Positions 24,217 through 50,800 of a stretch of DNA of 64,000 nt are shown here, one piece after another. The notes under the pieces are model-generated. The model ran no database searches. It was not told the DNA's origin and saw only the letters and a program-made list of their open reading frames with translations. Position numbers and translations under genes: made by a program. Source of the DNA: Candidatus Omnitrophota bacterium (GTDB taxonomy: Bacteria; Omnitrophota; Gorgyraeia; Ghiorseimicrobiales; Ghiorseimicrobiaceae); assembly GCA_030681595.1 (NCBI GenBank), contig JAUXSB010000003.1:31207-95206 (forward strand). The letters run 5' to 3'. Numbering within the stretch: the stretch's first letter is position 1; each line of letters starts with the position of its first letter.

Positions 24217-24219
24217 AGC

Positions 24220-25904: not shown

Positions 25905-25908
25905 CTTT

Positions 25909-35593: not shown

Positions 35594-35607
35594 AAATTAC
35601 CTTTGCA

Positions 35608-35794: not shown

Positions 35795-36032
35795 ATTCAA
35801 ATTTACTATTTTAATTATATCAACTTTCTTCAAATATTGCAACCCAATAAATTACCGCGAGCCTTATTATAGTTATAGCACATAAATTAACTACTGGCGC
35901 AGAAAATAACGCCTTATACATAAGCGCATTAAGGTTACAAGACATTCTGCTATGCAGGCAACACTTCAACTTATCTTTCCGCATTAATGCTCATTTAAAT
36001 ATAATGCTGCTTATGAAAATATTAATGCAGTA

Positions 36033-36956
36033 TCACAAAAACCAGGTTATAAGCGCTCCGGAAAACATCCAAAAGGCAAAGGGCGTAGTTTTCTGAATAG
36101 TTCTTTCGGAATAAAAATCAATTATTTTCTTAAGCATAGGGAACAGCAGCATAATCAATACGGTCGATATGAATGTATTTTTTATTTCAAAAATAAATCT
36201 TTTATCCGTATACACAAAGTATAGTATCAAAAAAACAAAAGTAATCATTATAAATTTGGTATTTTTTTTAAACATTTTGGAAAGCTTTTTAAAAAGCAAT
36301 AGGGCGATCAACATCAAAATATTCTGATCGGGTAAAATCCTACCGATTAAATTTTGTAATGCTTGTCGTAAAACCTTAAAAGCTAGAAAAAGAGTAAGAA
36401 AGCCAAAAAAGACTTTGCTTAATTCAATTTTATTAAATTTACTCTTCTCTTTAATTAATTCTGCGGTTTGCTTCTTTAATTTCCCAAAATTAAATTTTTT
36501 AATAAAGTAGGCGCATGACCGCAAAAAAAGATAAGCTGTCGCCGGTATAAAAATACTTAACAACAATGAAAAGGAAGCAAAGTAATAATTAAAATAAACC
36601 CGAGAATACTGCCCCATTGGAATAAGGGCAGAATAGCAGATAAAAAGCTTCGCATCCCCTGCTCCCCACATCTTAAAATACCATAGCGAATATGCCACAA
36701 TTATACTCGTTATTAAATTAACGCACCATTTGTCAAAATTATGGACTAAACCAGAAGATATTTCTGCTAAAACATTATTCGTAATTCCGCTTAAGGACAG
36801 ATAATAAATAATCCAGGAGGATAAATATAAAACACATGCGTAGATTAATCCTATTAAAATCCACTTATTTCTGATTTTAGAATACCTTAAGTCTTCGTAA
36901 GACGTAACAAGCCCGATAAAGAAAATTATCGGCAAAAAAATAATATTATTAATCAT
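36033..36956 (-). CDS. A24-family (prepilin-peptidase/CpaA-TadV-like) aspartic membrane peptidase with an extended C-terminal TM region
   Basis: 307 aa and polytopic. The first Asp motif is YEDLRYSKIRNKW (D-x5-I-x-N) and the second is MWGAGDAKLF (GxGDxKL). Confidence 0.6.
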   Translation of the reverse strand: MINNIIFLPIIFFIGLVTSYEDLRYSKIRNKWILIGLIYACVLYLSSWIIYYLSLSGITNNVLAEISSGLVHNFDKWCVNLITSIIVAYSLWYFKMWGAGDAKLFICYSALIPMGQYSRVYFNYYFASFSLLLSIFIPATAYLFLRSCAYFIKKFNFGKLKKQTAELIKEKSKFNKIELSKVFFGFLTLFLAFKVLRQALQNLIGRILPDQNILMLIALLLFKKLSKMFKKNTKFIMITFVFLILYFVYTDKRFIFEIKNTFISTVLIMLLFPMLKKIIDFYSERTIQKTTPFAFWMFSGALITWFL

Positions 36957-37214: not shown

Positions 37215-37700
37215 TCAAATATTATTGGATAATATCTTTTCCGAAATTTCTAACACCAAGCTTTTCAACTTAGAAAAATTGTTAGCATTTAATTTTAGAT
37301 ATTTATAGTAATATATAACGTAATCATGGTTAAAAAGTATGCCGTTACTCAGTTTATATTCGCCAAGATGCCGTAAAGCGAAAGCTAAATCTATCCAGTT
37401 ATCAAGATTGTCGGGGTTACGAGAAATGGATTTTAAAAAATATTTCTTCGCCTGAGAAAAGTCTTCGGCGATATAATAAATATATCCTGCAAGCGAAAAG
37501 ATTGTTTCTATCTGTTCTTCTTTTAACCAATTTTTAATTTTCCCTTGCAACATTCTTAATTTCTCGGGAGAAGAAAAATAAAGAATGGATAACCGGTAGA
37601 AAAGCGAATCTATCCGTTCAATATAGCCAGAAATATAATTTGTCTGACGAGGCGAGAGATCAAAACCAGCAATATTTTTAAATTCGTTACATATATCCAT
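37215..37700 (-). CDS. TPR-repeat protein
   Basis: 161 aa. AGYIYYIAEDFSQAKKYFLKSISRNPDNLDNWIDLAFALRHLGEY fits the TPR consensus. Confidence 0.55.
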   Translation of the reverse strand: MDICNEFKNIAGFDLSPRQTNYISGYIERIDSLFYRLSILYFSSPEKLRMLQGKIKNWLKEEQIETIFSLAGYIYYIAEDFSQAKKYFLKSISRNPDNLDNWIDLAFALRHLGEYKLSNGILFNHDYVIYYYKYLKLNANNFSKLKSLVLEISEKILSNNI

Positions 37701-38770
37701 TAATTAAACTGAACAATAAAAGGTATCTCCGGGGCAAAATTTCTCCTCTGCCATCTGATCCTTCTTATCAACTTGCCATTATTCAAAATCACAACATCTC
37801 TATCCTCTAAAAATACACAGTTTCCTCTTTTTAAGTCACTTTCATAAAGGTTATTTTCAGACATTTGACCAATGAAGTAGACATCTTTATAATGTAACTT
37901 ACCATTTTTAATCTCGCCATCAAAGGCATAAAATTTTATTTCATAAAAGATTAATAGGGGTAGTTTTAAATGCCTATCAATCTTTTCTACAAATTCCGGC
38001 TCTTCCGCATAAATCGCTTTTTTTATTTTTCTGGCCAATTCTATCGTAGCCTTACAATTATAAGCACAAGGCATATGATAGATATAGGAATAGGTAATAT
38101 CCCTAGTACAAGGATTAGATAAATAATGGTATCTATTTTTCTTGGTATTCTTAAATGCTTCATAAAGATAACTATACTTATACCAGTTATTAAACTGTCG
38201 AAAAAAACCGACACAACATTTTGGATATCCAAGGTTATATCCAAATTTAAAAATATCTATACCAGGCCTATCAATTACTCTATGTTTGATTATTAAAGGA
38301 TACCATCCATCTCTAAAACAATTTTCTAAGTTACCTTTTGATTTAGCAATAAATACATGAACAAGGCCATCTTTGCTTGACCCATTAAACGGTAAGCCAA
38401 ATGCATAAGTCGTAGTTAGGCGTTTACCACCTATAACATTTTTTAAAATATTTTTCTTTTTTGACATCCTAAAAACAGTATCGGTCCTTACAATAAGACC
38501 ATAGCGTTTGCATATTCTACGGTATTCATCATATCTATCCACCCTTACCCAGTCGTCCATCGCTGGCTTTATCTCTTTCACTGTAGCCATTATATTCACT
38601 AACTGCCCACTGCCCTTAATCTGGACAAATTCTCTACAGAATTTTTTTGGATAATAGGATTCAAACATTATAGATATAATGAAACTCCATGGCTTTACAG
38701 ACGCAGCACCCAAGAACCGCCTGCGCTTCGTTTTAGCTATGCCTGAAAGCAGGCATAGCTGCGACATCAC
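37700..38770 (-). CDS. Hypothetical protein (unknown family) in radical SAM cluster
   Basis: 356-aa ORF tightly packed with its neighbours (shared ATGA-type junction at 37700). It contains GYPKCCVGFF and MPCAYNCKAT. The start is uncertain, with alternative Met codons downstream. Confidence 0.5.
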   Translation of the reverse strand: MMSQLCLLSGIAKTKRRRFLGAASVKPWSFIISIMFESYYPKKFCREFVQIKGSGQLVNIMATVKEIKPAMDDWVRVDRYDEYRRICKRYGLIVRTDTVFRMSKKKNILKNVIGGKRLTTTYAFGLPFNGSSKDGLVHVFIAKSKGNLENCFRDGWYPLIIKHRVIDRPGIDIFKFGYNLGYPKCCVGFFRQFNNWYKYSYLYEAFKNTKKNRYHYLSNPCTRDITYSYIYHMPCAYNCKATIELARKIKKAIYAEEPEFVEKIDRHLKLPLLIFYEIKFYAFDGEIKNGKLHYKDVYFIGQMSENNLYESDLKRGNCVFLEDRDVVILNNGKLIRRIRWQRRNFAPEIPFIVQFN

Positions 38771-38794: not shown

Positions 38795-39766
38795 TTAAGC
38801 GCCTTTTATCGGCCTGAATTCTTCAGAGCCATATGCCTTTAAATAATGGACATATGGCCCAAGACAAAGGCTATTGAATACGCACCCACTACAAGAAACC
38901 ACCTTCCTTCTAGAGGTATATTTAAATGAATCATCTTTATTCTTTACACTCACCAAATAACCTCTGGAAATTTTTAATATTACGCATCTGAACATCTCCT
39001 TGTCAATCTTATTAATTATGCAAAATGGCATAGAGAGAAAATATCTTGCAAAATATATAAATAAATCAGAATGATAACGATATCTTTTTGTATACAACTC
39101 TACGGCTTTTTTAAAATACCTTATGACCTTTGTATATCTGGGCATTAGAAAATGGTAAAAAATAAGGGAAGCGGCATGCGGCCTATAATGATCTATCATA
39201 AAACGCATTCCAGGAAACTGTTCAATTTTAAGCCTTACCAAAGATGGAATATCCGCATAATTTTGCGTTAAAAAAATACCGTTTAATGTTACGGGTAAAT
39301 CAAACCGAGATAAATTGTTCAATGCCTCCATCAAATCAACAAATGAACCTGGAGAATTAGTTATCGCATCGTTTATCTTTGCAGTAGATCCGTAAATAGG
39401 AACATGAAATCCATTAGCTCCTGCCGTTACGACTTTCTTTAGAAAAACAAAATTCTTTAATTTTCTTCCCGTGGTTTGAACGGTGATATTTGTAAAAGAT
39501 AATTTACGCGCAAAAACTAATAAATCAATAATGGATGAACGGTTCAGTATTTCGTTACCCGTAAAGCATATCTTGCGAAAACCAAGCGACTTCGCAAGGC
39601 GTATCCTACATTTAATTGTATTTATATCATCCGGCTCATCATGGGTAAGTTGTTGCGTATTTTTTCCATGTACTAATCGGCTGTTCTGACAAAACACGCA
39701 AGAGTTATCGCATTGCGAATCTAATACTAAAATTATTTCATCGTTGTTTTGGAGAATAGGCATCAC
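38795..39766 (-). CDS. Small radical SAM protein, paralog S13 (divergent)
   Basis: It has CDNSCVFC (CxxxCxxC), with FTGNEIL in place of GGEP. The C-terminal signature is CSGCVFNSLCLGPYVHYLKAYGSEEFRPIK. Confidence 0.7.
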   Translation of the reverse strand: MMPILQNNDEIILVLDSQCDNSCVFCQNSRLVHGKNTQQLTHDEPDDINTIKCRIRLAKSLGFRKICFTGNEILNRSSIIDLLVFARKLSFTNITVQTTGRKLKNFVFLKKVVTAGANGFHVPIYGSTAKINDAITNSPGSFVDLMEALNNLSRFDLPVTLNGIFLTQNYADIPSLVRLKIEQFPGMRFMIDHYRPHAASLIFYHFLMPRYTKVIRYFKKAVELYTKRYRYHSDLFIYFARYFLSMPFCIINKIDKEMFRCVILKISRGYLVSVKNKDDSFKYTSRRKVVSCSGCVFNSLCLGPYVHYLKAYGSEEFRPIKGA

Positions 39767-40650
39767 TTAACAGGTTTAAACTCTTGCCACCCAAAAAACT
39801 CAGGATATTCACGCCAGGGTCCCTCGCAAATTTTGAAATATTTGCATTCTTCACACTTCGGCCCTTTAAGTTTTCCATGTTCTCTGCGCCACTGGTTAAA
39901 ATTGGTTATCGGTTTAATATCAAATACCTTGGTTTCAGGAATAATCGCTTCACTAGCACAATTGGCATATTCGCTTAAAAAACAATACGGTATGGCTTCA
40001 GTTTTTGGCATTTTTTTCTTCCTAATGCCAATTTCCAGGCCGCGTTTTAAATAAAGAATAATATCTTTTTTCTGCGGTATTAGCCAACTATGATTCGCTA
40101 ATGCGTTTCCTAAAATATGAGGAAAGGAAAAACGATATTCAACCACCCCTAAGCCAACTAACATCAAAGCAATCTTAGGTAAAAAGCGGTAATTCAATGC
40201 AGTAATAACTGTATTAGTAAATACTACGCGACCAGAAGAAAGGAGATGCTTAATACCACAAATCGTCTGAGCGAAACTTCCCCTCGCTCCCGTATGGCTA
40301 TCATGCAACTCAGCATTATGTCCATGTACCGATATAGTAAAAAGACTTGCACCTGCCTCTATCATTTTTTTACAAAAATCTTTATACCTAAACATTCTTC
40401 CGTTGCTTTGAATATGAACAATATATCCTAACTTTTTAGAATATCTTACCAAGTCTATGATATCAAAACGTATTGTAGGTTCTCCACCTGTAAAAATTAC
40501 CTCTTTATAACTATCTTTCGAATCAGCTAAAATAGTTTCTATCTGTGAGCGCGCCATATCGTTGTAGATTTTGCGCTTGTTACCTTGGACACAAAAACTA
40601 CAGTGGTTATTACATCTAAAACTAATTTTTATATCCAGCCTCTTATGCAT
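39763..40650 (-). CDS. Small radical SAM protein, paralog S12
   Basis: It has RCNNHCSFCVQG, FTGGEPT, SVHGHNAELHD and IPYCFL. The C-terminus is CEECKYFKICEGPWREYPEFFGWQEFKPVK. Its closest paralog is 55967-56872. Confidence 0.85.
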   Translation of the reverse strand: MHKRLDIKISFRCNNHCSFCVQGNKRKIYNDMARSQIETILADSKDSYKEVIFTGGEPTIRFDIIDLVRYSKKLGYIVHIQSNGRMFRYKDFCKKMIEAGASLFTISVHGHNAELHDSHTGARGSFAQTICGIKHLLSSGRVVFTNTVITALNYRFLPKIALMLVGLGVVEYRFSFPHILGNALANHSWLIPQKKDIILYLKRGLEIGIRKKKMPKTEAIPYCFLSEYANCASEAIIPETKVFDIKPITNFNQWRREHGKLKGPKCEECKYFKICEGPWREYPEFFGWQEFKPVK

Positions 40651-40681
40651 ACATCTATCCTAACCTTAATTATCCGTTGTC

Positions 40682-41614
40682 TTACGGCTCGCTTTTAACA
40701 TGTTTTATTGTCTCTTCTTTGGAAACAAAAACAGCGTATAGTTCTTGCGAAGAAAAATATTTATCCATCGCATAAAGGCCGGGACATATTTCATTCAAAA
40801 AACAAACACTACAACACTCAACCTTGCCATATGACCATCCTCTTTGGACTTTAAGGCCCTTTTCATCTAAGAAATAAATCGCGCGCTTCTCTCTCTTTAT
40901 TATTTTTCTGGCTTCCGTAGAACAATGTGCAAAATCAGCCATGTAACATAAGGGTACGCGTTCCGCCCTAAAAGTTCTCTTTTGCTCGGCTAAAAAATGC
41001 ATTGCCCTATTGAGCTCTAATTCAAAATCTATCAGTCGGGGAATCGTATCGGGATTTTCTGATGCGCGGTTCATCGAAGGGTCAATATTATTCCAGATAA
41101 AATGGCGAATAAACGGATATCTATTCACAAGCCACGCCGTAATTCTGCTTAAATGATCGGCATTATATTTATTAATCACGGTAATAACATCAACCTGCAA
41201 ATTTAACTTTTTGGCATTGTTAAGCGTTTTTTTAATGTTACATAAAGAATCCTTGTTCTCAGTAAGAAAACCCTGAATATCAGCACTATCAGAGTAGATG
41301 GATAAATTGATATGGTTTAATCCTGCCTCTGCCAATGAGTTAATATATTTAAAGTCGGCTGTTTTTTGGCCATTCGTTATTATTCTGACTGGAAAATTTT
41401 TGTTTGTTGCATACGCGATCAATTCAATGAGATCTGGATATAGGGTCGGCTCTCCTCCGCTTAAAATAACCCCATCGCAACCTATCTTGACATAATAATC
41501 AATTAACTCCTTAGCTTTCTTAAGAGATATGGTTTTATCAAACGACGGATTAGAACAAAATCTGCATTTTTGATTACAAATACGCGTAACCTGTATATAA
41601 GCTAATTCGGCCAT
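40682..41614 (-). CDS. Small radical SAM protein, paralog S11
   Basis: It has ICNQKCRFCSNP, LSGGEPTLYP and VPLCYM. The C-terminus is CCSVCFLNEICPGLYAMDKYF. Confidence 0.85.
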   Translation of the reverse strand: MAELAYIQVTRICNQKCRFCSNPSFDKTISLKKAKELIDYYVKIGCDGVILSGGEPTLYPDLIELIAYATNKNFPVRIITNGQKTADFKYINSLAEAGLNHINLSIYSDSADIQGFLTENKDSLCNIKKTLNNAKKLNLQVDVITVINKYNADHLSRITAWLVNRYPFIRHFIWNNIDPSMNRASENPDTIPRLIDFELELNRAMHFLAEQKRTFRAERVPLCYMADFAHCSTEARKIIKREKRAIYFLDEKGLKVQRGWSYGKVECCSVCFLNEICPGLYAMDKYFSSQELYAVFVSKEETIKHVKSEP

Positions 41615-41618
41615 GTTT

Positions 41619-42644
41619 TCAGTAATTGCATTTATGTTTATGCTTGTTTTTTATTTCTGAATCAAATATGCTAATCCGCTCTAAAGTATGCAATATTTCT
41701 TTCGGATTTTTATCTGAAAGCGTTAGATTAAAATTAGGATAAACTTTTAGATAATCTCTTCTTACCCCCGGGCATATTTCACACAAAGAACAGCCTCTGC
41801 ATTCTCTGTATTTATAAAAATCTTCTTTGGCGATATCATTTTGAGTCCTGAGATTATTTATCCCGCGCGAATCAAGATATAAGTTATTATGATATAAATT
41901 TTCTTTTAATTCAACACTGGACCATTCATAAGAAGAGAGGATACATAACGGAAAACCGCAAGCAGAAATTTTATCCGTAGGGTTATCCCCTCCTAACGCC
42001 TTTAACGCTTTTAAAAGATAAGGCTGAATCTTATTTAGCGGAGGAAGTATCTTTTTGTAAAAAGTACTGTCATTGCCGCCTAAATCCATAAATTTAAATT
42101 TTACCCTGAATGGCGTATGCCTTAATATTTTTTTAAGATGAGTCGCCATGCCCTCTAATTCTTTATAATTCAAGCTATTAATTACCGTGTTGAAATTAAT
42201 CGCTAGCCTTTCTCTTATCTTTTTATTATCCTTATTAAATGATTCGATATTTAGTAAAGCCTTTTCCTGTAAAGAATGGCAAAACTTATTTCTTGATATG
42301 GCATTTGCAACCTTTGGGATATGCGAGTGAAAAGAAAAATTTATCTGCACGACTCCGCCTTTAATAACCTTAACTAAAAAATCATAGTAACTAAGCATTG
42401 AACCGTTAGTTGTAACCTTAAGTTTTAAATTACATTTTTTGGCTTCTTCCAATATTTTTAAAAAATCTGGCCTAATGAATGATTCCCCGGTCATTAACAT
42501 AACTGTATCTTCCTTGTAACTCTTAACTTTTTGAAACAATTGCCTAATTTCTCCAAAAGAAAGATCTTTTTTATGCTTATGCTGCCTATCCAGACAAAAT
42601 AAACAGTTGAAATTACATTTTTGGGTAATGCCTGTAATAATCAT
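41619..42644 (-). CDS. Small radical SAM protein, paralog S10
   Basis: It has KCNFNCLFCLD, LMTGESF and FPLCIL. The C-terminus is CRGCSLCEICPGVRRDYLKVY. Confidence 0.8.
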   Translation of the reverse strand: MIITGITQKCNFNCLFCLDRQHKHKKDLSFGEIRQLFQKVKSYKEDTVMLMTGESFIRPDFLKILEEAKKCNLKLKVTTNGSMLSYYDFLVKVIKGGVVQINFSFHSHIPKVANAISRNKFCHSLQEKALLNIESFNKDNKKIRERLAINFNTVINSLNYKELEGMATHLKKILRHTPFRVKFKFMDLGGNDSTFYKKILPPLNKIQPYLLKALKALGGDNPTDKISACGFPLCILSSYEWSSVELKENLYHNNLYLDSRGINNLRTQNDIAKEDFYKYRECRGCSLCEICPGVRRDYLKVYPNFNLTLSDKNPKEILHTLERISIFDSEIKNKHKHKCNY

Positions 42645-44734
42645 TAATTTTCTATCGGCTTTAAATCAGAAAACGAATAAATTAATGCGTATTCTCGCCA
42701 TACGCCATTACAAAAATTATATAAATTACATTTAACACAATTTGGCCCCTTAATTTTGCCTAAATTTAAATTATTTTCCCGCGAATTAAATCTTAAAGTA
42801 TTTTCGGTATATTCCACACATTGGCTAAGGTACTTATGCCATCCTCCTATACATAACGGGACACCGCAATATGGATTAAATATCATTAAATCACATTTTT
42901 TAGCCAGCTCGACTGCCTTTTTGATATAGGGAGAGATTATTCCATATGACGGTATAAGATACTTATTTATTAATGCCCGCTCCCGCGGCTGGATAACCGA
43001 AAGCGAGATATTTTTAATTTGGGGAAATTTATTATGAACAAATTTTATGTATTCGGGTAACTCTTTGTAATTTTGGGTAGTTATAACCGGATTTAAGGTA
43101 ACATCAATATTTAATTCTAATGAATTCCTAATCCCTGCGATAGCCATATCGAAGGCACCCTCCAACCCTACCAGCTTATCATGAATTCCAGGTACTGAAG
43201 AATGCAGGCTAATAAATAGCTTATTCAGCCCGGCATATTTCAATTTTTTTAAATAATCGTTATCGGATAGCCTTATCGCGTTAGTTTGAACCTGAACTAT
43301 TTTTACTCCTTTTCTATGGGCATATTTTATCAACTCCGAAAGGTCTTTTCTCAGGGTAGGCTCACCGCCGGTAATATCCAACTCCAACCTTAATTCCTTA
43401 TCAAGTGCGGTCAAGCGGCCTATTTCAAGTTTAGCCTGTTTAGTCGAAAGCTCTTTTAGAGCATACGATTCCGGAGGAACATTACAAAATAAACATCCGG
43501 CATTACACGCTGAGCCTAATCGTAAAAGCTTATATGGGGAGTTTTTCTTGACATCACCAATACTAATTTTCTTTAACCCGGCTTTAATCGGTGATAAAAC
43601 CTCAAATCCGTGCTTACGGATATAATTACACTGCATTCCAGCACAGCCTGCCATATGTTTGCACTCCTTGCATCTTTTACTTTTCAAAAAATATCTGTGT
43701 TGAATATAAAAATCAAGAAACTTTAAAATATCTTTATTTTTTTGGTCATTTTGCACATATACTGCCGGCCTGCCCGAATATCCCGGTTCATTTATTTCCC
43801 CTAAACAAAAAGGGGAGGCATGCGAAAGTATTTTATTTTTTTTCTTTAATTCTATTAAATCCTTACAAAAATTTTCTAAAAAACAAAACCGGCACCTCAA
43901 GCCTTTACAATCCATCACTTTGCCTTTAAAAAGAAAATTATTAAACATATCCTTGCGGCCGCCTACTTCATCGTATAATTTAGCCGGGTGCTGGATTAAA
44001 TATTCAAATCCTTCAAGATACTGCGGGGGGAAACGATTTGTCCATATATGTAGCCGCGGATCTTTGGATAGCATAAAAGCTTTGCGCAAAAATTTAATTG
44101 ATTTTTGAATATCATAAAAGAGAATATCCCTCTTAGCCCATGCTTGCCCAAATGGGATAACTTGCAAAAGATCAAACTCATATACGCCCAAATTAATAAA
44201 GAATTCTAAAATACTTGCTAAATACATTACATTAATTTTGTTTATCACAATATCAACACTAACAATCAAATCTTTTTCTTTTAAAGCATTAACTAAGGCT
44301 ACTAACGACTGCTGAAATGATCCCGGTACTTTAGTTTGTTGATCATGAAGCCTGCTATTATGCCCATGCAGCGAAAAGGTTATTTCTGATACACCGCTTT
44401 CTATTGCCTGCTTTAAGAAGCTCTGGTAGGCAAACATCCGGCCATTGGTAATAACTTGAATATGGCTGTATCCTAATGTCCTCGCCATATTAACAATATT
44501 AAAAAAATCCGGATGGATTGTTGGTTCTCCCCCGCTTAAAACAACTCGTCTTATCCCTAAACCTCTGCCTTTTTGTAAATCGGCTTTGATCTTCTCTAAA
44601 GGGATTACGCTCCCATCATGGGCTTCTTTATCTAAACAAAAGAGGCAGCGGTTATTACAACCCCGGGTTAGCCGTACCCAGTGTCTTTTTACCTGTGGTA
44701 TAATTTCTCGTTGCATAGAATAGCCTTTTATCAT
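42644..44734 (-). CDS. Fused di-domain radical SAM protein (paralogs S8 + S9 in one 696-aa polypeptide)
   Basis: There are two complete units. Unit 1 has GCNNRCLFCLDK...LSGGEPT...CKECKHMAGCAGMQCNYIRKHGFEVLSPIK. Unit 2 has ACNAGCLFCNVP...ITGGEPT...VPLCIGG...CVKCNLYNFCNGVWREYALIYSFSDLKPIEN. Confidence 0.85.
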   Translation of the reverse strand: MIKGYSMQREIIPQVKRHWVRLTRGCNNRCLFCLDKEAHDGSVIPLEKIKADLQKGRGLGIRRVVLSGGEPTIHPDFFNIVNMARTLGYSHIQVITNGRMFAYQSFLKQAIESGVSEITFSLHGHNSRLHDQQTKVPGSFQQSLVALVNALKEKDLIVSVDIVINKINVMYLASILEFFINLGVYEFDLLQVIPFGQAWAKRDILFYDIQKSIKFLRKAFMLSKDPRLHIWTNRFPPQYLEGFEYLIQHPAKLYDEVGGRKDMFNNFLFKGKVMDCKGLRCRFCFLENFCKDLIELKKKNKILSHASPFCLGEINEPGYSGRPAVYVQNDQKNKDILKFLDFYIQHRYFLKSKRCKECKHMAGCAGMQCNYIRKHGFEVLSPIKAGLKKISIGDVKKNSPYKLLRLGSACNAGCLFCNVPPESYALKELSTKQAKLEIGRLTALDKELRLELDITGGEPTLRKDLSELIKYAHRKGVKIVQVQTNAIRLSDNDYLKKLKYAGLNKLFISLHSSVPGIHDKLVGLEGAFDMAIAGIRNSLELNIDVTLNPVITTQNYKELPEYIKFVHNKFPQIKNISLSVIQPRERALINKYLIPSYGIISPYIKKAVELAKKCDLMIFNPYCGVPLCIGGWHKYLSQCVEYTENTLRFNSRENNLNLGKIKGPNCVKCNLYNFCNGVWREYALIYSFSDLKPIEN

Positions 44735-45693
44735 TTAATTGCCCTGAATTCGCCCCAGCCAACCTTTTCGGCATAAAGATTATCTATACCGCTGCATTTA
44801 TAATAATATTTGCATGGTTTACAGCTTTTATTTTTTATATTCCTTGATTCACGAGGTAATATTTCTACTCTTTTATTTTTAACCTGAAGTGGGATTTCGG
44901 ATTCCCCGACGTAATTTTCATAACCTACCATCAAACAAAGCGGCACAGGAGATATCTGTATAACGCCGGATAATCTAAACAGCTTATCTACTTTTAACCT
45001 ATCAATTACATTCCTAACTTCTTTAGCTACATCCAAATAAGTAACAAATAACTGACTGAAGAATCTTTCTGCGTTGCCGGAATACATTGGCATATTTAAC
45101 ACAATGCTATCTACTTTATTAAACGGTAAGATTTTTCTTAAGAAATTTTCAATATCTCTGTAGTTAATTTTTGTCATGGTAAAATTAACATTAAGCCGAA
45201 ATCTATATTTTTCCTTTAAAGAGACCATGTTGCATAACCCTTGCCATGTTTGTTCAAATGCACCGCTGCTACGAGTTAAGGCATCATGGATTTTTTTATT
45301 ACTCCCGTGAAGAGAAATATTAATCTCATTTAGCCCGCTATCTAATAATTCAATGCAAAAGTTTTTATATCTTAATAAACGCCCGTTTGTCTGTAGGCAA
45401 ATATCTTTATATCCCCACTTCTTAGATAATCTTATGAAATAAAGTAAGCCCTTATTCAGCGTTGACTCTCCCCCCGTAAATGATATGGAATCGACTTCTT
45501 TTGTTTTTCTTCCATCTCTTTTAAACATATCCAGATTTAAAAATGGTTCTCCGTTGACACTGCAATAATATTTTGACAACATATTCTGGCCATTAATACA
45601 ATCGCGATCACAGCAAAAAATACAATTATTGTTACAACACCCGCTGGTTTTAATATGAATTCTACTATCAGGGCTTATAATTACGTTATCCAT
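44731..45693 (-). CDS. Small radical SAM protein, paralog S7
   Basis: It has CCNNNCIFCCD, FTGGEST, SLHGSNKKIHD and VPLCLM. The C-terminus is CKPCKYYYKCSGIDNLYAEKVGWGEFRAIK. Confidence 0.85.
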   Translation of the reverse strand: MDNVIISPDSRIHIKTSGCCNNNCIFCCDRDCINGQNMLSKYYCSVNGEPFLNLDMFKRDGRKTKEVDSISFTGGESTLNKGLLYFIRLSKKWGYKDICLQTNGRLLRYKNFCIELLDSGLNEINISLHGSNKKIHDALTRSSGAFEQTWQGLCNMVSLKEKYRFRLNVNFTMTKINYRDIENFLRKILPFNKVDSIVLNMPMYSGNAERFFSQLFVTYLDVAKEVRNVIDRLKVDKLFRLSGVIQISPVPLCLMVGYENYVGESEIPLQVKNKRVEILPRESRNIKNKSCKPCKYYYKCSGIDNLYAEKVGWGEFRAIK

Positions 45694-45696
45694 TCT

Positions 45697-47055
45697 CTAA
45701 CGGTAAAAAAATAATGCGTAGATATATTTTTCTTCCGGCTTATCAAAATAAAAACAAATGTAATCATCAAAAATCTTTATTTTTCCAAGCCGCTTTAAAG
45801 CGTAAATAGCATAAGGAAAGGCAACAAAAATACTTGTACCAAACACAGCCTCAAATATTTTTTGAGGAACCTTGGATTCTAAGGCTAAATGATTTATTAT
45901 AAATTTTATCATCGCCTCTTTTTTCCTTAATATTCTACCCTCATATATTTTACTATCAAACTCAAAATGCCTCGGTTGCTTAACTTGACGATACTCCAGC
46001 ATACCATGTATATACGACCTGGAAAATGTTCCCAGGCCAAAGGTACACCCTGCGTATTCACCGGAATAATCTTGGGAAAAACTAGAGTCAAGATGTTCCT
46101 TATGGCGAAAGCCCCAATGGAACCTGGCAGGGTCAAAAGAGTCCGCTACATAGCCGAATTTCCGGCTTAATACACGCATAATTTTTAATGCCCGTGAAAT
46201 CATGGATGGATAATGCTTTTGAAAATAATCTGCGCGGCTCATCTTGAAATATTTACGCAGATATCCGTCATTAGGCGGCATTAAACCATAGACAACGATA
46301 TTATAAGGCCTTAATTTAGCAATTTCAGAAAAACTTTTTGTAAAGCCATTTGGGCTATCCCCTGCGAGACCGGCTATTAAATCGACACTAATATCCCTAA
46401 AACCATTTTCTTTTACCAGCCCAATTGCTTTTTTAATGCTCGCGTAATCCTGATAGTCCCTTTTATGAATTTTTAAAACCTTAGCATTTAAAGTTTGCAC
46501 GCCAAAACTAACTCTATTAAATCCAAAATGCTTAAGTAAGCTCAATCTTGAATTTCTTGTACTGCCTGGATTACATTCGGCTGTTTTTTGGCTATCGCCA
46601 CAAAATGAAAAATACCGGAAAAGATTTGTGAGAACCTTATCAAGTTGTTTGCTGTTTAAAATACTTGGTGTACCGCCTCCGACATAAAGATTACGGAATT
46701 TAATTTGGCTGAATGTATCGGAAAAAAAACACATATTCTCAATCAAATAATCCACATACCGGTCTATCTCTCTCCTGTCTCTTGCTGTCTGCGAAGGATA
46801 CGAACAATAAACACATTTTGACTGACAAAATGGGATATGGATGTAGAAATCGATATCGCACGGGTTGTTTTTATTTTTAGCATACTGGATAAATTTAGCC
46901 CAATAATCTTTAATTAGGCGGGGGCTAATCTGCCGGTTATAATCGGAATATGTATGCAGTTGATTAATATCATAAAAATAATCCCTCCGCCTAAGAATAT
47001 TTTCAAAATACGACACCTCATTCCTTAATATTTTTAAAATGTTGTTATCGCTCAT
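45697..47055 (-). CDS. HemN-like (oxygen-independent coproporphyrinogen oxidase family) radical SAM enzyme, copy 2
   Basis: 452 aa. It has YIHIPFCQSKCVYCSY, LYVGGGTPS and NRVSFGVQT, the classic HemN/HemZ-family motifs. Confidence 0.8.
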   Translation of the reverse strand: MSDNNILKILRNEVSYFENILRRRDYFYDINQLHTYSDYNRQISPRLIKDYWAKFIQYAKNKNNPCDIDFYIHIPFCQSKCVYCSYPSQTARDRREIDRYVDYLIENMCFFSDTFSQIKFRNLYVGGGTPSILNSKQLDKVLTNLFRYFSFCGDSQKTAECNPGSTRNSRLSLLKHFGFNRVSFGVQTLNAKVLKIHKRDYQDYASIKKAIGLVKENGFRDISVDLIAGLAGDSPNGFTKSFSEIAKLRPYNIVVYGLMPPNDGYLRKYFKMSRADYFQKHYPSMISRALKIMRVLSRKFGYVADSFDPARFHWGFRHKEHLDSSFSQDYSGEYAGCTFGLGTFSRSYIHGMLEYRQVKQPRHFEFDSKIYEGRILRKKEAMIKFIINHLALESKVPQKIFEAVFGTSIFVAFPYAIYALKRLGKIKIFDDYICFYFDKPEEKYIYALFFYR

Positions 47056-47063
47056 ATGAATAA

Positions 47064-47990
47064 CTAAATAGGGCTTAATTCTTTATCGCCAAATTCTTTA
47101 TAATAACGCTTAAATATTCCCCCGCAGATATTCTTCTTTGCGCAACGCTGGCATACAACTGTATAGATCCTCCCCCTAACCGGCCTGTACGAATGCGTAA
47201 CCTTAAGAAATCTTTGGCTACTTCTATGCATCTTTTCGATTGTCGTCCGGGGAGACCACCAAAGATCATTAGAACAGCCCTGATAATTATTCAATATACA
47301 AAGCGGTATCCCAAAAAATCTAACAACCAAAGAATTCCTATCGGCTTCGGATATAATTGTTCTAATGTTTTCTTTAATTAACTTAAGGGGCACGGATAGC
47401 TCGCAAAAATTATCCAAAGCATTGCCTTCAGGAGCAATATTAGAAATGAGTATCTGCTTTATTTTTTTGAAATTAGAGATAAATTTGATTATGCGATCTA
47501 GCGATCCAAAATTATACCGCGTCAATACGATATTAACAATGCCGAATATGTCTTTCGGATGCCTATCTATATTTTTTAACGCACGAAGCAAATTATCAAA
47601 ACTATGTTCGTTATTTGTATGAAAATTATGGAGTTTAGCGCTGTGGCCATGCAAAGAGAAGCAGAACTCATCAACATAATTTAAGGCCTCCCGAGTGAAA
47701 TCTTTTAAATAAAATAATCCTCCGTTACTCGTAGTATAAGTTTTATAGCCTTTAGTTTTTGCTAATTTAACTATTTCCACAAAATCGGGATGAAAAGTCG
47801 GTTCTCCTCCGGTAAAAGTAACATGATTAATTCTTCCCTTGTGATATTTTTCCAAAACGTTATTTACAACCGATTTCGGCAAAAAATACCCTTTAAACTT
47901 TATTAGCTGCTTATGCTCACTGCAAAAAATACAGTTATTTACGCAATCATAGGATATATGCAATTCTAATCGTTGTATATTATTTTCCAT
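47064..47990 (-). CDS. Small radical SAM protein, paralog S6
   Basis: It has DCVNNCIFCSEH, FTGGEPTFHP, SLHGHSAKLHN and IPLCIL. The C-terminus is CQRCAKKNICGGIFKRYYKEFGDKELSPI. Confidence 0.85.
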   Translation of the reverse strand: MENNIQRLELHISYDCVNNCIFCSEHKQLIKFKGYFLPKSVVNNVLEKYHKGRINHVTFTGGEPTFHPDFVEIVKLAKTKGYKTYTTSNGGLFYLKDFTREALNYVDEFCFSLHGHSAKLHNFHTNNEHSFDNLLRALKNIDRHPKDIFGIVNIVLTRYNFGSLDRIIKFISNFKKIKQILISNIAPEGNALDNFCELSVPLKLIKENIRTIISEADRNSLVVRFFGIPLCILNNYQGCSNDLWWSPRTTIEKMHRSSQRFLKVTHSYRPVRGRIYTVVCQRCAKKNICGGIFKRYYKEFGDKELSPI

Positions 47991-47994
47991 ATCA

Positions 47995-48912
47995 TTATTT
48001 AATCGGCTTTATTTCGCGATCACCATAATATTTTAGGTATATATCCCAAACACCTTTACACTTATCAGCAATCTTACAAAATAAACATTTTCTAATTTTT
48101 ATTCGATTAATTATTTTTTTTGACTCGATATTTTCGTACTGTTCAATTTTATTTTTAGATATCAACCGAGGCGTACTTTCAAACGAATATTCATTTTCCT
48201 CGATAGTACCGGATATCTGCTTAAGATAGTCCCCAAAATAGCATAAGCAGGGAACATTTAAAGCCGCATAGCTAACCTCATCATCTAACCGCCCAATATC
48301 TAAAAATTTGCGAATATAATACGCGGCTGTAGAAATACGCGGCGTATATTTATAAAAATCACGCGGGGAACTAACATAAATGAGGCATGCCGTTTTTATC
48401 CCAACACGATAGATTAACTTACCTATATCATATAAATATTTATAATTCTGCTTAACAATTACCGTGTTTGTACCTATATTATCAAACCCGAATTTCCTAA
48501 GGTTGGCAATCCCTTCCTTAAGATGTTTAAAGCTCCCCTCTACCTGCGATAGATAATCGTGTAATTTTGCATTATGCCCGTTGATCGTAAAGATTATACG
48601 AGAAATTCCTGCCTCAATAGCCCTACGAGTAAAATCTTCATAAGAGAAAAACCTGCCATTTGTAGTCAAAGTGATATTTTGAAAACCTATATTTTTGGCA
48701 AATTTTAGCAAATAAAAAAAGTCCGGCCTAATCGTAACCTCCCCCCCGGCAAAAAAAGCATCAACAGCCCCAGCTTTTTTCGCTTCTTTAATCTCCCGCA
48801 TTATTTCCTGTGTCGTTTTAACAGGAATACCCCTATATGCCCTATCGCCGCAAAAACGGCAATAATTATTACAGGAATAACCGGTAAGAAATTTTGCTGT
48901 TTTATCTTGCAT
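47995..48912 (-). CDS. Small radical SAM protein, paralog S5
   Basis: It has SCNNYCRFCGD, FAGGEVT, TINGHNAKLHD and VPCLCY. The C-terminus is CLFCKIADKCKGVWDIYLKYYGDREIKPIK. Confidence 0.85.
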   Translation of the reverse strand: MQDKTAKFLTGYSCNNYCRFCGDRAYRGIPVKTTQEIMREIKEAKKAGAVDAFFAGGEVTIRPDFFYLLKFAKNIGFQNITLTTNGRFFSYEDFTRRAIEAGISRIIFTINGHNAKLHDYLSQVEGSFKHLKEGIANLRKFGFDNIGTNTVIVKQNYKYLYDIGKLIYRVGIKTACLIYVSSPRDFYKYTPRISTAAYYIRKFLDIGRLDDEVSYAALNVPCLCYFGDYLKQISGTIEENEYSFESTPRLISKNKIEQYENIESKKIINRIKIRKCLFCKIADKCKGVWDIYLKYYGDREIKPIK

Positions 48913-48922
48913 TGATAATAGT

Positions 48923-50455
48923 TTATTGCTTGGAGTTAGAGTTGAAGCACCGATTGTACTGCCCGCATTCTCGGCAAAATCCCCGCCATAAGTTTAAATT
49001 GAGATTATCCACCATAAGGCGACTTTGTGTTAACGCCGCAAGATATTTCGATTTCTTATAAATACAATAGATCTCGGAATGATACAACTTCAAAATTTCG
49101 CTGATATCGGCTTCGGAAAAAAATTCTGTGCAATATGGGATGACGGATAAATTAGATTTGGAGAAATTATAAAAATCCTTTAAGGAATTTACTTTACTTA
49201 ATACTCCGTATTTTTCTGGATAAAGGAATAGTGGAGAAGCAGGGTCAATCGCAGTTGAGTCCTGGCGTATTTCAACATTCGCTAATCTATTCCGTATGGA
49301 ATTAATGAATTTTAATGTTTCATATATATTTTTTTTTGTTTCAAAAGGCAAACCCGCGGAAAACGATAAGCATAATTTAAGATTTTTTTTATTGGCATAC
49401 AATAAAATCTCTAATATTTCATTATTTGAATAGCCCGCCTCTTTATTCATTTTCCTGATTTTTCGCGATCCGCTTTCTAAAAAAATTGAAATAATTGACC
49501 CCCTTTGAAATGTTTTCGCGAATTCGTCAATAAATACCTTTGTTGATAATCTGCAATCACCAAAATTTATAGTTAGGTCGATTTTATTTTTCCGTATTTC
49601 TTTAAACAAATCCATAAAATATGCATCATTCTGGCTCACCGCATACATATGCAGTTTATTGATATTATATTTTTTCAGTCTTTTTAAATCCTTAATCACA
49701 TATTTCACATCGGCAAAAACAATTTTACTTCTCTTGTTAATATTTTTTTGGGCCGAACACCCTCCCCCACAAAAAGAACAGCTCCTGACGCATCCCCGGC
49801 TAGCAGTATAATAAAATATTGGTTCGCTATCCTTATTGTTTAAATCCATAGAGAAGAATCTTATATATTTATCGTGGTTACGAATAAGTTTAAAGTTCGC
49901 ATATGATAATCTGTTAATTATGGCTTTGCCGGCAACATAAGTATGGGGGTTTTCAACTATGCCTTCACCGTCTCTCCATACCAAGTTCGGGATAAGGCGC
50001 AACCCCTCCGGAGATTTACTTCGGATACTATTTAAAAGCGCTAATAAAGGGATTTCCGCATCACCCTTGATGACAAAATCTATTTCTTTATATGTACGCA
50101 TAATTTCAGTGGCGAAAAGTGAAGCCGTCATCCCGCCTACTATCACCGTAATCTTTTTAATCCCGCGTTTTAAATATTTAATCGCCTCCAATACTTCGTA
50201 TGTATGCTGATACCAATGAAGATCAAATAATACTGCCCAATAACCTCTACTTATAACAAAATTTTTCAAGTCAAAACTGGGATTTAAGCTTTTTTCCAGG
50301 CCCAGATGAATAATAGACGGTTTAAAGCTATTTTTTGATAAATAGTCTGCGATGCCTATCATGCCGCGAGGCATCAATTTTATGCTAGGATTTTTCCCCT
50401 CTCTGGATACATGGACAAAACAAACTTTATTATTAAGCTTAAGGTTAGCAGCCAT
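48923..50455 (-). CDS. B12-binding-domain radical SAM enzyme (class B)
   Basis: 510 aa. The N-terminal Rossmann-like cobalamin-binding region reads VIVGGMTASLFATEIM...DFVIKGDAEIPLLALL. This is followed by ASRGCVRSCSFCGG and a C-terminal CRECGQYNRC. Confidence 0.75.
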   Translation of the reverse strand: MAANLKLNNKVCFVHVSREGKNPSIKLMPRGMIGIADYLSKNSFKPSIIHLGLEKSLNPSFDLKNFVISRGYWAVLFDLHWYQHTYEVLEAIKYLKRGIKKITVIVGGMTASLFATEIMRTYKEIDFVIKGDAEIPLLALLNSIRSKSPEGLRLIPNLVWRDGEGIVENPHTYVAGKAIINRLSYANFKLIRNHDKYIRFFSMDLNNKDSEPIFYYTASRGCVRSCSFCGGGCSAQKNINKRSKIVFADVKYVIKDLKRLKKYNINKLHMYAVSQNDAYFMDLFKEIRKNKIDLTINFGDCRLSTKVFIDEFAKTFQRGSIISIFLESGSRKIRKMNKEAGYSNNEILEILLYANKKNLKLCLSFSAGLPFETKKNIYETLKFINSIRNRLANVEIRQDSTAIDPASPLFLYPEKYGVLSKVNSLKDFYNFSKSNLSVIPYCTEFFSEADISEILKLYHSEIYCIYKKSKYLAALTQSRLMVDNLNLNLWRGFCRECGQYNRCFNSNSKQ

Positions 50456-50536
50456 TTAAAAGCGTGAAAATGTGTTTTCTTTCGAATAAATACGCAAATT
50501 ACTGTGAATCATTTTTTTAAATTTACGGTTATCCCC

Positions 50537-50775
50537 CTAGGTGTTTAAAAGTATATCCCGTATAGACGAAGAGGTTTTTCCGATATCATCCAAACTTTTT
50601 ATATCATTCACTGTGCCAAAATAAAATTCTCTTTTTAGCTTTTTAAATTTAGTCTCAAGCAATGGCCCCCCACAAAATATATCCCCCCGTCGCAATCAAC
50701 AGCCGGTTCAGAAGATATGATCCGCTCACCTTCCCGAATTTTGAAATTCGCTATAAAATTAATAATCTATTGATA
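50537..50775 (-). pseudogene. Possible decayed or frameshifted small ORF in the only large intergenic gap of the cluster
   Basis: Two overlapping minus-strand frames read ...EGERIISSEPAVDCDGGIYFVGG and GGPLLETKFKKLKREFYFGTVNDIKSLDDIGKTSSSIRDILLNT*. Adding one G in the G6 tract (50666-50671 on plus) would fuse them. No canonical start codon is present. Confidence 0.25.
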
Positions 50776-50800
50776 CTGGGTAAAACTTGCGTATCCATAA

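Follow-up and report, generated by a model that had tools for sequence, protein, structure and literature searches.

An A24-like intramembrane protease gene closing an Omnitrophota Hxs radical SAM cluster: a candidate leader peptidase for an HxsA4-type precursor

Peptidases of family A24 are known from textbooks for their part in type IV pili, type II secretion and archaella. In the 64,000-nucleotide stretch of Omnitrophota DNA analysed here (hereafter, the window), a gene of this type is the last one of a low-GC Hxs island rich in radical SAM genes, and this raises the question of which protein such an enzyme would cleave in these surroundings. We addressed it by considering in turn the protein itself, the cluster to which its gene belongs, the distribution of this association among genomes, and the peptide that would be its substrate.

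The gene (36033..36956; all the genes and motifs located below lie on the minus strand) encodes a 307-aa protein, as described in the first-pass annotation of this DNA, and was assigned to A24-like GxGD intramembrane aspartyl proteases with approximately ten TM helices. The two catalytic Asp motifs reported in that annotation were found as well. Motif 1, EDLRYSKIRNKW (residues 21-32, 36861-36896), lies at the cytoplasmic end of TM1 and carries D22 (36891-36893), while motif 2, GAGDAKLF (residues 98-105, 36642-36665; WGAGDAKLF in context), is of the GxGD form and carries D101 (36654-36656). Both catalytic Asp are conserved across homologues, and D22, N30, G100, D101 and K103 are invariant among 47 of them, with identities down to 29%. 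In a positive-inside analysis, loop 1 is predicted to be cytoplasmic, and the K/R richness of loops 1, 5, 7 and 9 puts both D22 and D101 on the cytoplasmic side, where A24 enzymes have their catalytic Asp.

An extra region, ~150 aa long and containing several TM helices, had also been reported; it is real, but rather than C-terminal it is probably better read as a family-specific insertion ahead of the last helix (residues ~140-290, 36087..36539), on the basis of AF2 secondary structure, loop charges and a Pfam domain ending near residue 132. Helices of the AF2 secondary structure cover residues ~128-306. Lying between the GxGD helix and the final one, the insertion consists of an amphipathic, K-rich cytoplasmic segment together with four to five added TM helices (i.e. 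a doubling of the TM helix number). The term insertion seems preferable to C-terminal extension because the last helix bears an invariant PFAxW motif resembling the canonical PFGP-type motif. It occurs as PFAFWMFSG (36057..36083), with A294 and W296 invariant and F293, F298 and G300 conserved in at least 90% of sequences, and is presumably the counterpart of the PFGP motif that canonical A24 enzymes carry in their final TM helix.

Membership in peptidase family A24 (MEROPS clan AD; PF01478) was accepted on the basis of family-level Pfam matches and of the fold. The search with the Pfam Peptidase_A24 HMM, suggested beforehand as a check, succeeded for the family but not formally for this protein: 37 of the 47 members match PF01478 (best E 2e-7), whereas the 307-aa protein itself obtains 24.3 bits (E 4.4e-5), i.e. 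a sub-threshold score with regard to the gathering score of 26.5. A fold comparison recovered FlaK (structure 3S0X), in agreement with a polytopic FlaK-like membrane fold whose active site is at the cytoplasmic face. Sequence similarity to FlaK was undetectable even with the family profile, and a PDB search with this profile returned nothing, even at E<=10. Compared with FlaK, PibD and EppA, the archaeal A24B preflagellin/prepilin peptidases, the window protease has the ~150-aa insertion with its four to five TM helices, and its partners are Hxs radical SAM genes instead of archaellin or pilin genes.

Within bacteria, TadV/CpaA, the Flp prepilin peptidases, are likewise A24 enzymes restricted to the protease domain, with motif 1 D-L-x-x-x-x-I-x-N and motif 2 G-x-G-D-x-K-L. 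They are encoded in tad/cpa pilus loci and, without a methyltransferase domain, cut Flp prepilins at G↓xxxxEY (the arrow marks the cut). Unlike them, the window protease has no tad locus, its candidate substrate has no Flp motif, and it is about twice as long. PilD/GspO/ComC (A24A, bifunctional peptidase and N-methyltransferase) belong to the same Pfam family and have the same catalytic motifs, but the window protease lacks their N-terminal Cys-rich methyltransferase region and their pilus/T2SS linkage, and its candidate substrate lacks the F/M-T-L-I-E motif. Indeed, no PilD-type N-terminal methyltransferase domain is present: the protein opens with TM1, motif 1 starts at residue 21 and no second domain was detected. 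The family formed by the window protease and its homologues is discrete, with about 1,000 clusters at 50% identity (971 at E<=1e-10) from which canonical A24 families stay unmerged, and it was found in Omnitrophota, CPR/Patescibacteria and DPANN archaea. Its members are named 'prepilin peptidase' or 'CpaA' in databases (NCBI, JGI), the label 'CpaA' being given to some of them by JGI. No NCBIfam model matches this protein or three divergent members, nor does any PADLOC model match the A24-like protein.

The cluster of the window was then surveyed from its head to the protease gene. It opens with a Cys-rich secreted protein of 196 aa (61011..61601), whose homologue in the syntenic locus L090 is placed likewise, and continues with HxsD (60542..60967; TIGR03976, 55.4 bits, cutoff 50), an HxsD-like small protein of 69 aa (60352..60561; NF038315, 64.8 bits, cutoff 41; a predicted gene in both L090 and L094) and the radical SAM/SPASM maturase HxsB (58892..60361; TIGR03978, 490 bits, cutoff 370). 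A second Cys-rich secreted protein (254 aa, 58155..58919), with an ordinary Sec-type signal peptide, no Pfam or NCBIfam match and homologues in some Hxs loci only, lies between HxsB and the HxsA4-type His-Xaa-Ser repeat precursor (98 aa, 57829..58125; NCBIfam NF038313, 60.7 bits, cutoff 55), i.e. the proposed substrate. An array of 16 radical SAM genes comes next (38795..57839), with 12 HxsC/HxsC4-like (one of them double-domain), two HemN-like, one B12-binding and one SPASM-type-like, and with an unknown gene in its midst (54970-55977). The cluster ends with a DUF483-like protein of 322 aa (37700..38668) displaying an invariant CC...HxPCxxxC and not recognisable as a protease, by fold either, a TPR protein of 161 aa (37215..37700; Pfam TPR) encoded immediately upstream of the protease, and the protease gene itself. 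These last three form a conserved trio in Omnitrophota (L001, L005, L007, L011 and L090).

HxsA4, HxsB and HxsD score above their curated cutoffs, which makes this cluster an Hxs system of the HxsA4 variant. The 39 kb of the window outside the cluster gave only one weak generic match. The HxsC paralogues, whose best match is HxsC4/HxsC, are to be regarded as HxsC-like and not as equivalogs, because all of them score below the curated cutoffs (85-217 bits versus 500 or 268). No ABC or C39 exporter, nor any dedicated exporter, is encoded in the cluster, and the A24-like enzyme is its sole recognisable protease. PADLOC returned generic viperin-like radical SAM matches only, and none of the components of this Hxs variant is modelled in PADLOC 2.0.

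Canonical HXS was described in 2026 as an antiphage defence with the organisation HxsD-HxsB-HxsC-HxsA; 99.8% of these systems consist of the four genes only, without a protease, and HxsA acts in the periplasm only after a cut of non-canonical type near its N-terminus, made by an unidentified protease (PMC13128918). Both systems combine a His-Xaa-Ser repeat protein with HxsD, HxsB and radical SAM enzymes of the HxsC kind. However, the canonical HxsA carries a peptidoglycan-binding domain and a signal peptide of 22 residues, whereas the window precursor is of the short HxsA4 type with a different, long conserved leader; in the window, HxsC is expanded to 12 paralogues, and HemN-like and B12 radical SAM genes and the A24-like protease are added.

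The AT-rich composition of the protease gene matches that of the cluster, as had been proposed: its GC3 is 0.34, within the range of the cluster genes (0.30-0.36) and against 0.42-0.48 for the left-flank genes, which places it inside the Hxs island. A 258-bp gap separates the TPR gene from the protease gene in the window, unlike in homologues, where the protease gene touches or overlaps the one upstream of it; when the TPR-A24 junction was aligned with those of L090 and L001, the window was found to carry an extra spacer. Scanning positions 35300-38000 for promoters and terminators gave fewer promoter-like sites than in shuffled sequences, one weak hairpin in the gap, and no convincing promoter or terminator. 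Given this gap, the protease gene could nevertheless be transcribed independently.

Co-occurrence of an A24 gene at homologous clusters had been named beforehand as a check, and the outcome was strongly positive. Hxs-type neighbours, i.e. HxsC-like radical SAM arrays and/or HxsD-HxsB-HxsA, were found in 80 of the 82 non-redundant loci with a family member, in Omnitrophota, CPR/Patescibacteria and DPANN archaea alike. HxsC-like radical SAM genes, strictly defined, average 3.7 per locus (at least three in 55/82) and are usually located directly upstream on the same strand. Same-strand radical SAM matches average 3.85 upstream of the protease versus 0.54 downstream, where the genes vary between loci. 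The association was also seen in all seven metagenomic contexts (7/7), and minimal layouts exist, such as HxsD-B-A-A-A24 (L020), HxsD-A-A24 (L072), A24-A (L081) and, in archaea, A24-HxsD-HxsB-HxsA, all of them joining the protease to HxsA. Searching from the precursor led to the same protease gene, at the cluster end; the leader-only protein search, of limited reach with so short a query in a word index, gave seven matches, and this precursor-to-protease test amounts to one lineage plus the protease-anchored loci. HxsA4 was detected in 24 of the 82 loci, the 10-kb flanks examined largely missing the head of long clusters, and direct protease-precursor pairing concerns a minority of loci at this flank size. 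The A24-like gene is not a recognised Hxs component, its association being documented through synteny, but it is encoded, in the manner of a RiPP leader peptidase, together with a precursor and modifying enzymes.

HxsA4 is the only leader-bearing ORF of the window. Precursors of this kind are organised as a lysine-rich leader of ~36 residues, a hydrophobic segment of 10-23 residues, an AxA site and the HxS repeats, and the linked HxsA4-type precursors share the leader consensus FLxSEEGKISKKxIx[KR][IL]-G. In the window, the leader (residues 1-36, 58018..58125) ends with K34-I35-G36, which suggests a candidate cut G36↓I37 where the charged leader gives way to the hydrophobic segment. When 30 distinct precursors were aligned, a small residue was found at a fixed position of this boundary (G in 24, A in four and S in two), preceded at two residues by K/R in 20 of them, and K[IL]G was present in all seven further precursors. 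A24 enzymes cut where a charged leader meets a hydrophobic segment, and the PilD-type cut after Gly at such a junction served as a model for the proposed HxsA4 site. Bacterial PilD-type enzymes favour G at -1; the proposed -1 position is A or S in 6/30 precursors. What sets HxsA4, as putative substrate, apart from the substrates of FlaK/PibD/EppA is its long conserved leader (~36 aa), its short hydrophobic segment and the AxA site downstream. In the window, this site is A51-Q52-A53 (57967..57975); it is signal-peptidase-I-like, comes after the short hydrophobic segment and immediately precedes the HxS repeats; by inspection, most precursors have an AxA site, and the uncharged stretch after the Gly is short (median ~13 residues). 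Since the hydrophobic segment is short and followed by AxA, HxsA4 resembles an ordinary Sec/SPase I substrate, for which a further protease would not be strictly necessary. Small ORFs of L001 were suspected to be alternative precursors and were rejected, as they are transposase fragments.

From these comparative data, we consider it probable that the gene encodes an active and dedicated GxGD (A24-fold) intramembrane protease, which would process the leader/signal region of HxsA4 on the cytoplasmic side of the membrane and would have no part in pilus biogenesis. The first-pass annotation had put forward a dedicated intramembrane leader peptidase as a candidate role, and comparative genomics argues in its favour through the linkage in 80/82 loci, the invariant Asp pair and the conserved small residue. 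That annotation left the choice of substrate between the cluster's peptide and its secreted proteins; the HxsA4 peptide is the likely one, because the two Cys-rich proteins have ordinary short Sec signal peptides and some minimal systems retain the protease without them. We found neither a paper nor a curated model that connects A24 enzymes with Hxs or RiPP maturation, and a role in peptide leader trimming has probably not been described previously for this protease family.

The mechanism that we propose can be outlined as follows. HxsB, HxsD and the many HxsC-like enzymes would modify the repeats in the cytoplasm, with the leader as a handle, by extension from canonical HXS (PMC13128918). The hydrophobic segment of HxsA4 would enter the membrane in an N-in/C-out orientation, like a prepilin or a Sec signal anchor, and the D22/D101 protease would cut at or beside the small residue (G36↓I37), which would free the leader from the membrane-embedded part. 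A cut at AxA on the outer face, probably by signal peptidase I, would release the modified HxS peptide; either order of the two cuts would be possible. Speculatively, the four to five extra TM helices may dock the non-pilin substrate. A more specific version, which we put forward tentatively and with less confidence, is that this is the first aspartyl (GxGD, A24-fold) intramembrane protease recruited as a dedicated leader peptidase for a radical-SAM-modified peptide or effector system, cutting at [KR]-[IL]-G↓, with the extra TM helices coupling it to membrane passage.

Among the alternatives, the one that survives best, although we regard it as unlikely, keeps HxsA4 as the substrate but differs in order and purpose. 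After export by Sec, SPase I would first release HxsA4 at AxA, and the A24-like enzyme would then cut, inside or at the membrane, the unusually long leader-plus-signal fragment left over (~53 residues), in order to remove this remnant and recycle or release the leader from the maturases, i.e. as housekeeping rather than product maturation. Such an order would agree with the AxA-type site that most precursors have behind a short hydrophobic region of Sec-like character, and the linkage and active-site evidence fits it equally well. It also has a precedent among GxGD proteases, as eukaryotic signal peptide peptidase is one of them and works after signal peptidase. Signal peptide peptidase (SPP), which removes signal-peptide remnants, and presenilin (A22) share GxGD diaspartyl intramembrane catalysis with the window protease, but A22 and A24 are different families with opposite membrane orientations of the active-site helices, and no sequence or fold match of the window protease to A22 SPP/presenilin was obtained. 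Moreover, the A24-family enzymes characterised so far cleave intact precursors at the cytoplasmic edge, not remnants, and a prepilin-type site typically shows such a conserved Gly with fixed spacing. Discussion of the GxGD clan is found in PMC2947513.

It is quite improbable that the protease targets something other than HxsA4, be it another cluster product, such as a Cys-rich secreted protein or a membrane partner, or a target from elsewhere. Cys-rich secreted proteins do co-occur with it in L008, L011, L015, L017, L041, L050 and L090, but their short ordinary Sec signals have no small residue at a leader/hydrophobic junction, and they are missing where minimal systems keep the protease with HxsD/B/A. 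As main substrates, the two proteins of the window were thus rejected. Very improbable, too, is a non-proteolytic role in which protease activity would be lost or irrelevant and the A24-like scaffold would act as an exporter, a maturase dock or an immunity protein. The family-specific insertion, with its doubling of the TM helices, and the lack of a dedicated exporter in the cluster would suit this role, but 47 sequences (at least 29% identity) show no variation in the catalytic Asp pair, the GxGD Gly, the next Lys or the motif-1 Asn, so that catalysis is hard to dispense with, and an exporter is not required because HxsA4 already bears a Sec-type signal.

Least of all can we retain, as highly improbable, an ordinary prepilin/Flp peptidase for pilins or pseudopilins encoded elsewhere, with an incidental radical SAM neighbourhood, as the names given by NCBI and JGI might suggest, since the Hxs linkage is kept in 80/82 loci from Omnitrophota, CPR and DPANN while outer neighbours vary, the family is discrete and unmerged with canonical A24 families, the gene shares the island composition, and the protein has the 150-aa insertion and no PilD-type methyltransferase region. 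The earlier statement that no pilin, secretin or ATPase gene occurs in the 64-kb window holds for all ORFs of at least 130 aa, and no such gene is adjacent to the protease in eight contexts with Pfam-annotated gene tables. A prepilin peptidase would have pilin, pseudopilin, Flp or archaellin substrates and an assembly locus as partners, and these are not the partners of this gene. In favour of the ordinary role, T2SS/T4P/Tad genes are common in Omnitrophota (10.64898/2026.06.07.730766), and L090 has genuine type IV pseudopilins (MKRG↓FTLLE) with T2SSF ~8.5 kb past the cluster start, beyond housekeeping genes and ~17 kb from the protease gene. Pilin genes are thus probably present elsewhere in such genomes, but they cannot account for an Hxs linkage kept across three superphyla. 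The window position matching the L090 pseudopilins would lie just past 64000.

If HxsA4 leader processing by the A24-like protease is correct, it would name the kind of enzyme behind the 'non-canonical N-terminal processing' of the HXS antiphage system, at least in this variant. As the HxsA4 variant brings along both a candidate protease of its own and a precisely located candidate site, the HXS N-terminal cleavage step becomes directly testable. A discrete and widespread subfamily with radical SAM partners would also extend A24 biology to peptide/effector maturation. With regard to RiPPs, the M50 metalloproteases EpeP and TglG/TmoG, reviewed in PMC10885120, are likewise membrane-embedded and encoded in peptide-modification clusters, including radical SAM ones, and are thought to couple cleavage with export; they are zinc metalloproteases of a different fold, whereas the enzyme is a GxGD aspartyl one here. 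An aspartyl intramembrane class would be added to the known RiPP leader proteases, as the 2023 review of these enzymes includes no aspartyl, A24 or prepilin-type enzyme (PMC10885120). Renaming family members from 'prepilin peptidase' to 'Hxs-associated A24-like peptidase' would stop false pilus inference in the genomes that carry them.

Its members come mostly from Omnitrophota, CPR and DPANN, lineages of ultrasmall and largely episymbiotic organisms in which radical SAM arrays are hugely expanded, with 17 genes here.

The open reading frame at 36033-36956 (minus strand, 307 aa), which encodes the A24-like protease, was recovered exactly as the first-pass annotation had described it. It ends a low-GC block (GC 0.345 versus 0.42 in the flanks) in which every gene from 61601 down to 36033 is on the minus strand. 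The reported AT-rich, cluster-like composition of the gene was confirmed: its GC3 is 0.34, within the 0.30-0.36 of the cluster genes, and left-flank genes have 0.42-0.48. The block is a His-Xaa-Ser (Hxs) system. In order of transcription, its genes encode a Cys-rich secreted protein, HxsD (TIGR03976, above cutoff), a 69-aa HxsD-like protein (NF038315), HxsB (TIGR03978, 490 bits), a second Cys-rich secreted protein, the 98-aa HxsA4 precursor (NF038313, above cutoff), 16 further radical SAM proteins (12 HxsC/HxsC4-like, two HemN-like, one B12-binding and one SPASM-type-like), a DUF483-like protein, a TPR protein and finally the A24-like protease. Outside the island, the window carries hydrogenase, pyrophosphatase, chemotaxis and housekeeping genes. 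The chemotaxis set (16914-26669, upstream of the island) is complete, i.e. CheR-TPR, CheW, CheB, two MCPs, a CheA-CheY fusion and another CheW, and no flagellar or pilus genes were found beside it in the window. An intergenic tandem repeat (35608-35794; 44-bp unit, 4.2 copies, 96% identity) just downstream of the A24-like gene lies at the exact junction of the low-GC island with normal-GC DNA and could be a boundary mark or an integration scar.

In the HxsA4 precursor (57829-58125, minus strand), the only leader-bearing ORF in the window, a junction resembling that of prepilins precedes a site of the signal-peptidase type. Thirty distinct HxsA4-type precursors, all encoded at the homologous loci described below, begin with the well-conserved motif P-x-[IL]-K-K-x-[IL]-x-x-F-L-x-S-E-E-G-K-I-[ST]-K-K-x-[IMA]-x-[KR]-[IL]-G. 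It is followed by 10-23 uncharged residues (median about 13), in most cases by an AxA-like site, and then by the His-Xaa-Ser repeats. At fixed spacing from the EEGKI core, the charged/hydrophobic junction residue is G in 24, A in four and S in two, with K or R two positions ahead in 20 of the 30; all seven additional precursors have K-[IL]-G. A24 peptidases have one substrate requirement, a small residue, classically Gly, at the leader/hydrophobic junction. In the window precursor this junction reads K34-I35-G36, with a candidate cut between G36 and I37, and is followed by A51-Q52-A53. The A24-like enzyme is the sole recognisable protease in the cluster, and no dedicated exporter was found among the cluster genes. 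Considered as a possible alternative, the DUF483-like protein gave a confident predicted model with no informative fold match.

We propose that the A24-like protease probably severs the HxsA4 leader at the membrane. Radical SAM enzymes would first modify HxsA4 in the cytoplasm, its hydrophobic segment would then enter the membrane N-in/C-out, the protease would sever the leader of about 36 residues at or next to G36, and signal peptidase I would free the modified repeat peptide outside. An A24 cut preceding the AxA cut would amount to prepilin-like maturation, and one following it to clearing of the kind performed by signal peptide peptidase. The latter order, in which a long leader-signal remnant is cleared, is the main rival, although we consider it unlikely. 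The idea of a dedicated intramembrane leader peptidase for the radical SAM cluster, raised with reservations in the first-pass annotation, is supported by co-occurrence at homologous clusters, cleavage itself being proposed from sequence.

Several features of the precursors deserve mention. The radical SAM ORF after HxsA4 (56859-57959, minus strand) enters the HxsA4 gene by about 120 nt in another frame; the 'MAPMAPMAP' N-terminus of this longest ORF consists of frame-shifted HxS repeats, and the true start is probably the Met of 'MANGNINS', near 57840. The Logan gene call adopted the 363-aa ORF and missed HxsA4 altogether, a pitfall in annotating HxsA-type precursors. A separate assembly, made from a sequencing run of the same organism (L094, 7654 onward), gives an HxsA4 of 101 aa, with one extra GSH repeat, versus 98 in the window, which suggests that the number of HxS repeats varies or that assembly slipped within them. 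In two Woesearchaeota HxsA proteins (L061, 14716-15315; L069, 6850-7422), the same leader is paired with Peptidase_S74 (E 8.7e-18), the 'chaperone of endosialidase' domain, at the C-terminus. Phage tail fibres typically carry this self-cleaving chaperone of trimerisation, and its presence suggests that the HxS repeats of these archaeal lineages may form fibres of three chains. The leader also precedes quite different cores (L057, 1993-2643; L073, 5590-6081 and 7085-7552; L078, 18573-19058), i.e. a 216-aa Cys/Asp/Ser-rich protein with few HxS repeats, or HxS repeats followed by Cys-rich tails, so this pairing of leader and protease may act on cargoes of different kinds.

Linkage of the A24-fold enzyme to HxsA4-type systems is conserved. 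In seven of seven homologues chosen across 62-30% identity, the gene either immediately follows or is embedded in a run of 5-10 radical SAM genes of the same orientation, with an upstream-gene spacing of -17 to +48 bp; the downstream neighbours differ (AspRS, RecA, SMC, PGK or an HD-domain sensor). A wider scan with one genome per species gave 220 relatives, from which the best 80 loci were retained, covering Omnitrophota, many CPR/Patescibacteria (protein of about 400 aa) and DPANN archaea (350-380 aa). HMMs made from the window's cluster genes were mapped onto all loci. The co-occurrence that the first-pass annotation had itself proposed to check was found, with Hxs-type neighbours at 80 of 82 non-redundant loci; the exceptions are an uninformative 2-kb contig (L033) and a 24.6-kb contig without any Hxs-type match (L067). 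Same-strand radical SAM matches averaged 3.85 upstream and 0.54 downstream per locus. At a strict 50-bit threshold, 72 loci had at least one HxsC-like gene and 55 at least three, the baseline being a single weak generic match in the 39 kb of window outside the cluster. A search from the precursor leader yielded L090, a syntenic Omnitrophota locus with the whole system in 12 kb, ending with DUF483-like, TPR and 304-aa genes, the last scoring 416 bits against the family HMM and overlapping the TPR gene by 8 nt. The most telling evidence comes from minimal arrangements: HxsD-HxsB-HxsA-HxsA-A24 (L020), HxsD-HxsA-A24 (L072), A24-HxsA (L081) and, in several archaea, A24-HxsD-HxsB-HxsA. Because of these minimal gene sets, a substrate other than HxsA4 is quite improbable; as for the two Cys-rich proteins, their signal peptides are short and ordinary, and the minimal systems lack them.

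Cluster content varies among loci. The L090 cluster (7809-17029) has only six radical SAM genes versus 17 (18 domains) in the window (38795-60361), both flanked by the same RsmE/MiaB-like and DUF483-like/TPR/A24 landmarks, which indicates that HxsC-like paralogues have multiplied recently and on a large scale. In L001, mutator-type transposase fragments and a YcaO gene (4330-4887, 6294-7586) lie between radical SAM genes, evidence that mobile elements have remodelled the cluster and that it has taken up additional enzymes of peptide modification. At the divergent locus L008 (13483-14172), another radical SAM gene, a gene for a DUF483 protein and one for a site-2 protease (Peptidase_M50) come after the A24-like gene, giving that neighbourhood a second intramembrane protease.

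Regarding the protease itself, both A24 motifs reported earlier were found, i.e. EDLRYSKIRNKW (residues 21-32) and GAGDAKLF (residues 98-105). The Pfam check was mixed: PF01478 (Peptidase_A24) aligned to residues 11-132 (E 4.4e-5) at 24.3 bits, just below the gathering score of 26.5 bits, but was matched by 37 of 47 aligned homologues. As this match alone is marginal, membership was tested further. An NCBIfam search returned no matching model; a homologue search gave 117 relatives, about 100 of them full-length (300-320 aa) and mostly from Omnitrophota, and the window protease is itself an NCBI MAG protein labelled 'prepilin peptidase'. D22, N30, W92, W97, G100, D101, K103, F105, L111, P113, F136, A294 and W296 are invariant across the 47 homologues (down to 29% identity). 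Loops 1, 5, 7 and 9 are K/R-rich (family averages 2.6, 5.4, 3.5 and 2.0 K+R, versus 0.6-1.2 for loops 2, 4, 6 and 8), which, as in A24 enzymes, puts both D22 and GxGD on the cytoplasmic side of the membrane. Homologue conservation and topology identify the protein, at the sequence level, as a genuine A24-fold GxGD protease whose diaspartyl site is intact and faces the cytoplasm; with its catalytic residues invariant, a non-catalytic membrane role is hard to credit. The extra C-terminal region of about 150 aa noted at first pass is real but is probably not a tail, since the last helix bears an invariant PFAxW, which we take to be the counterpart of PFGP in the final A24 helix of PilD-type sequences. 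We therefore read the architectural novelty as an insertion of 4-5 helices (about residues 140-290). At E<=1e-10, an exhaustive profile search gave 971 clusters (50% identity); the family is fairly large, yet it stays separate from the canonical A24 families, which are far larger.

Its fold and active site place the window protein in the A24 family; it falls outside the functional definition of prepilin, Flp and preflagellin peptidases, because it has no pilus partners, methyltransferase domain or nearby pilin-type substrate. In line with the first-pass annotation, pilin, secretin, T2SS-E and T2SS-F genes are absent among ORFs of at least 130 aa across the 64-kb window, a negative that covers the window only, the counterpart of the L090 pseudopilin region being just past position 64000. 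That region (L090, 1-2469) holds T2SSF and four type IV pseudopilin-like genes (MKRG|FTLLE), some 8.5 kb past the point where the Hxs cluster begins and about 17 kb from the protease gene. Pilins elsewhere in these genomes probably exist, T4P/Tad being often encoded by Omnitrophota (10.64898/2026.06.07.730766); an ordinary pilin peptidase adjacent by chance is nevertheless very unlikely, because Hxs synteny spans phyla.

The A24-like protease is not recognised as an Hxs component in NCBIfam, PADLOC or the HXS paper (PMC13128918), and a full-text literature search on Hxs, Omnitrophota radical SAM, and prepilin peptidase with RiPP found no linking paper. None of the RiPP leader proteases in a 2023 review is an aspartyl, A24 or prepilin-type enzyme; the intramembrane ones it cites are M50 metalloproteases (PMC10885120). 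We therefore regard the protein as having a protease fold that is already known, enlarged by an insertion specific to its family and placed in a functional context that is both new and conserved. In canonical HXS, N-terminal cleavage of HxsA needs HxsB/C/D, the protease responsible was not identified, and 99.8% of systems have no fifth gene (PMC13128918); the variant in the window brings its own candidate protease.
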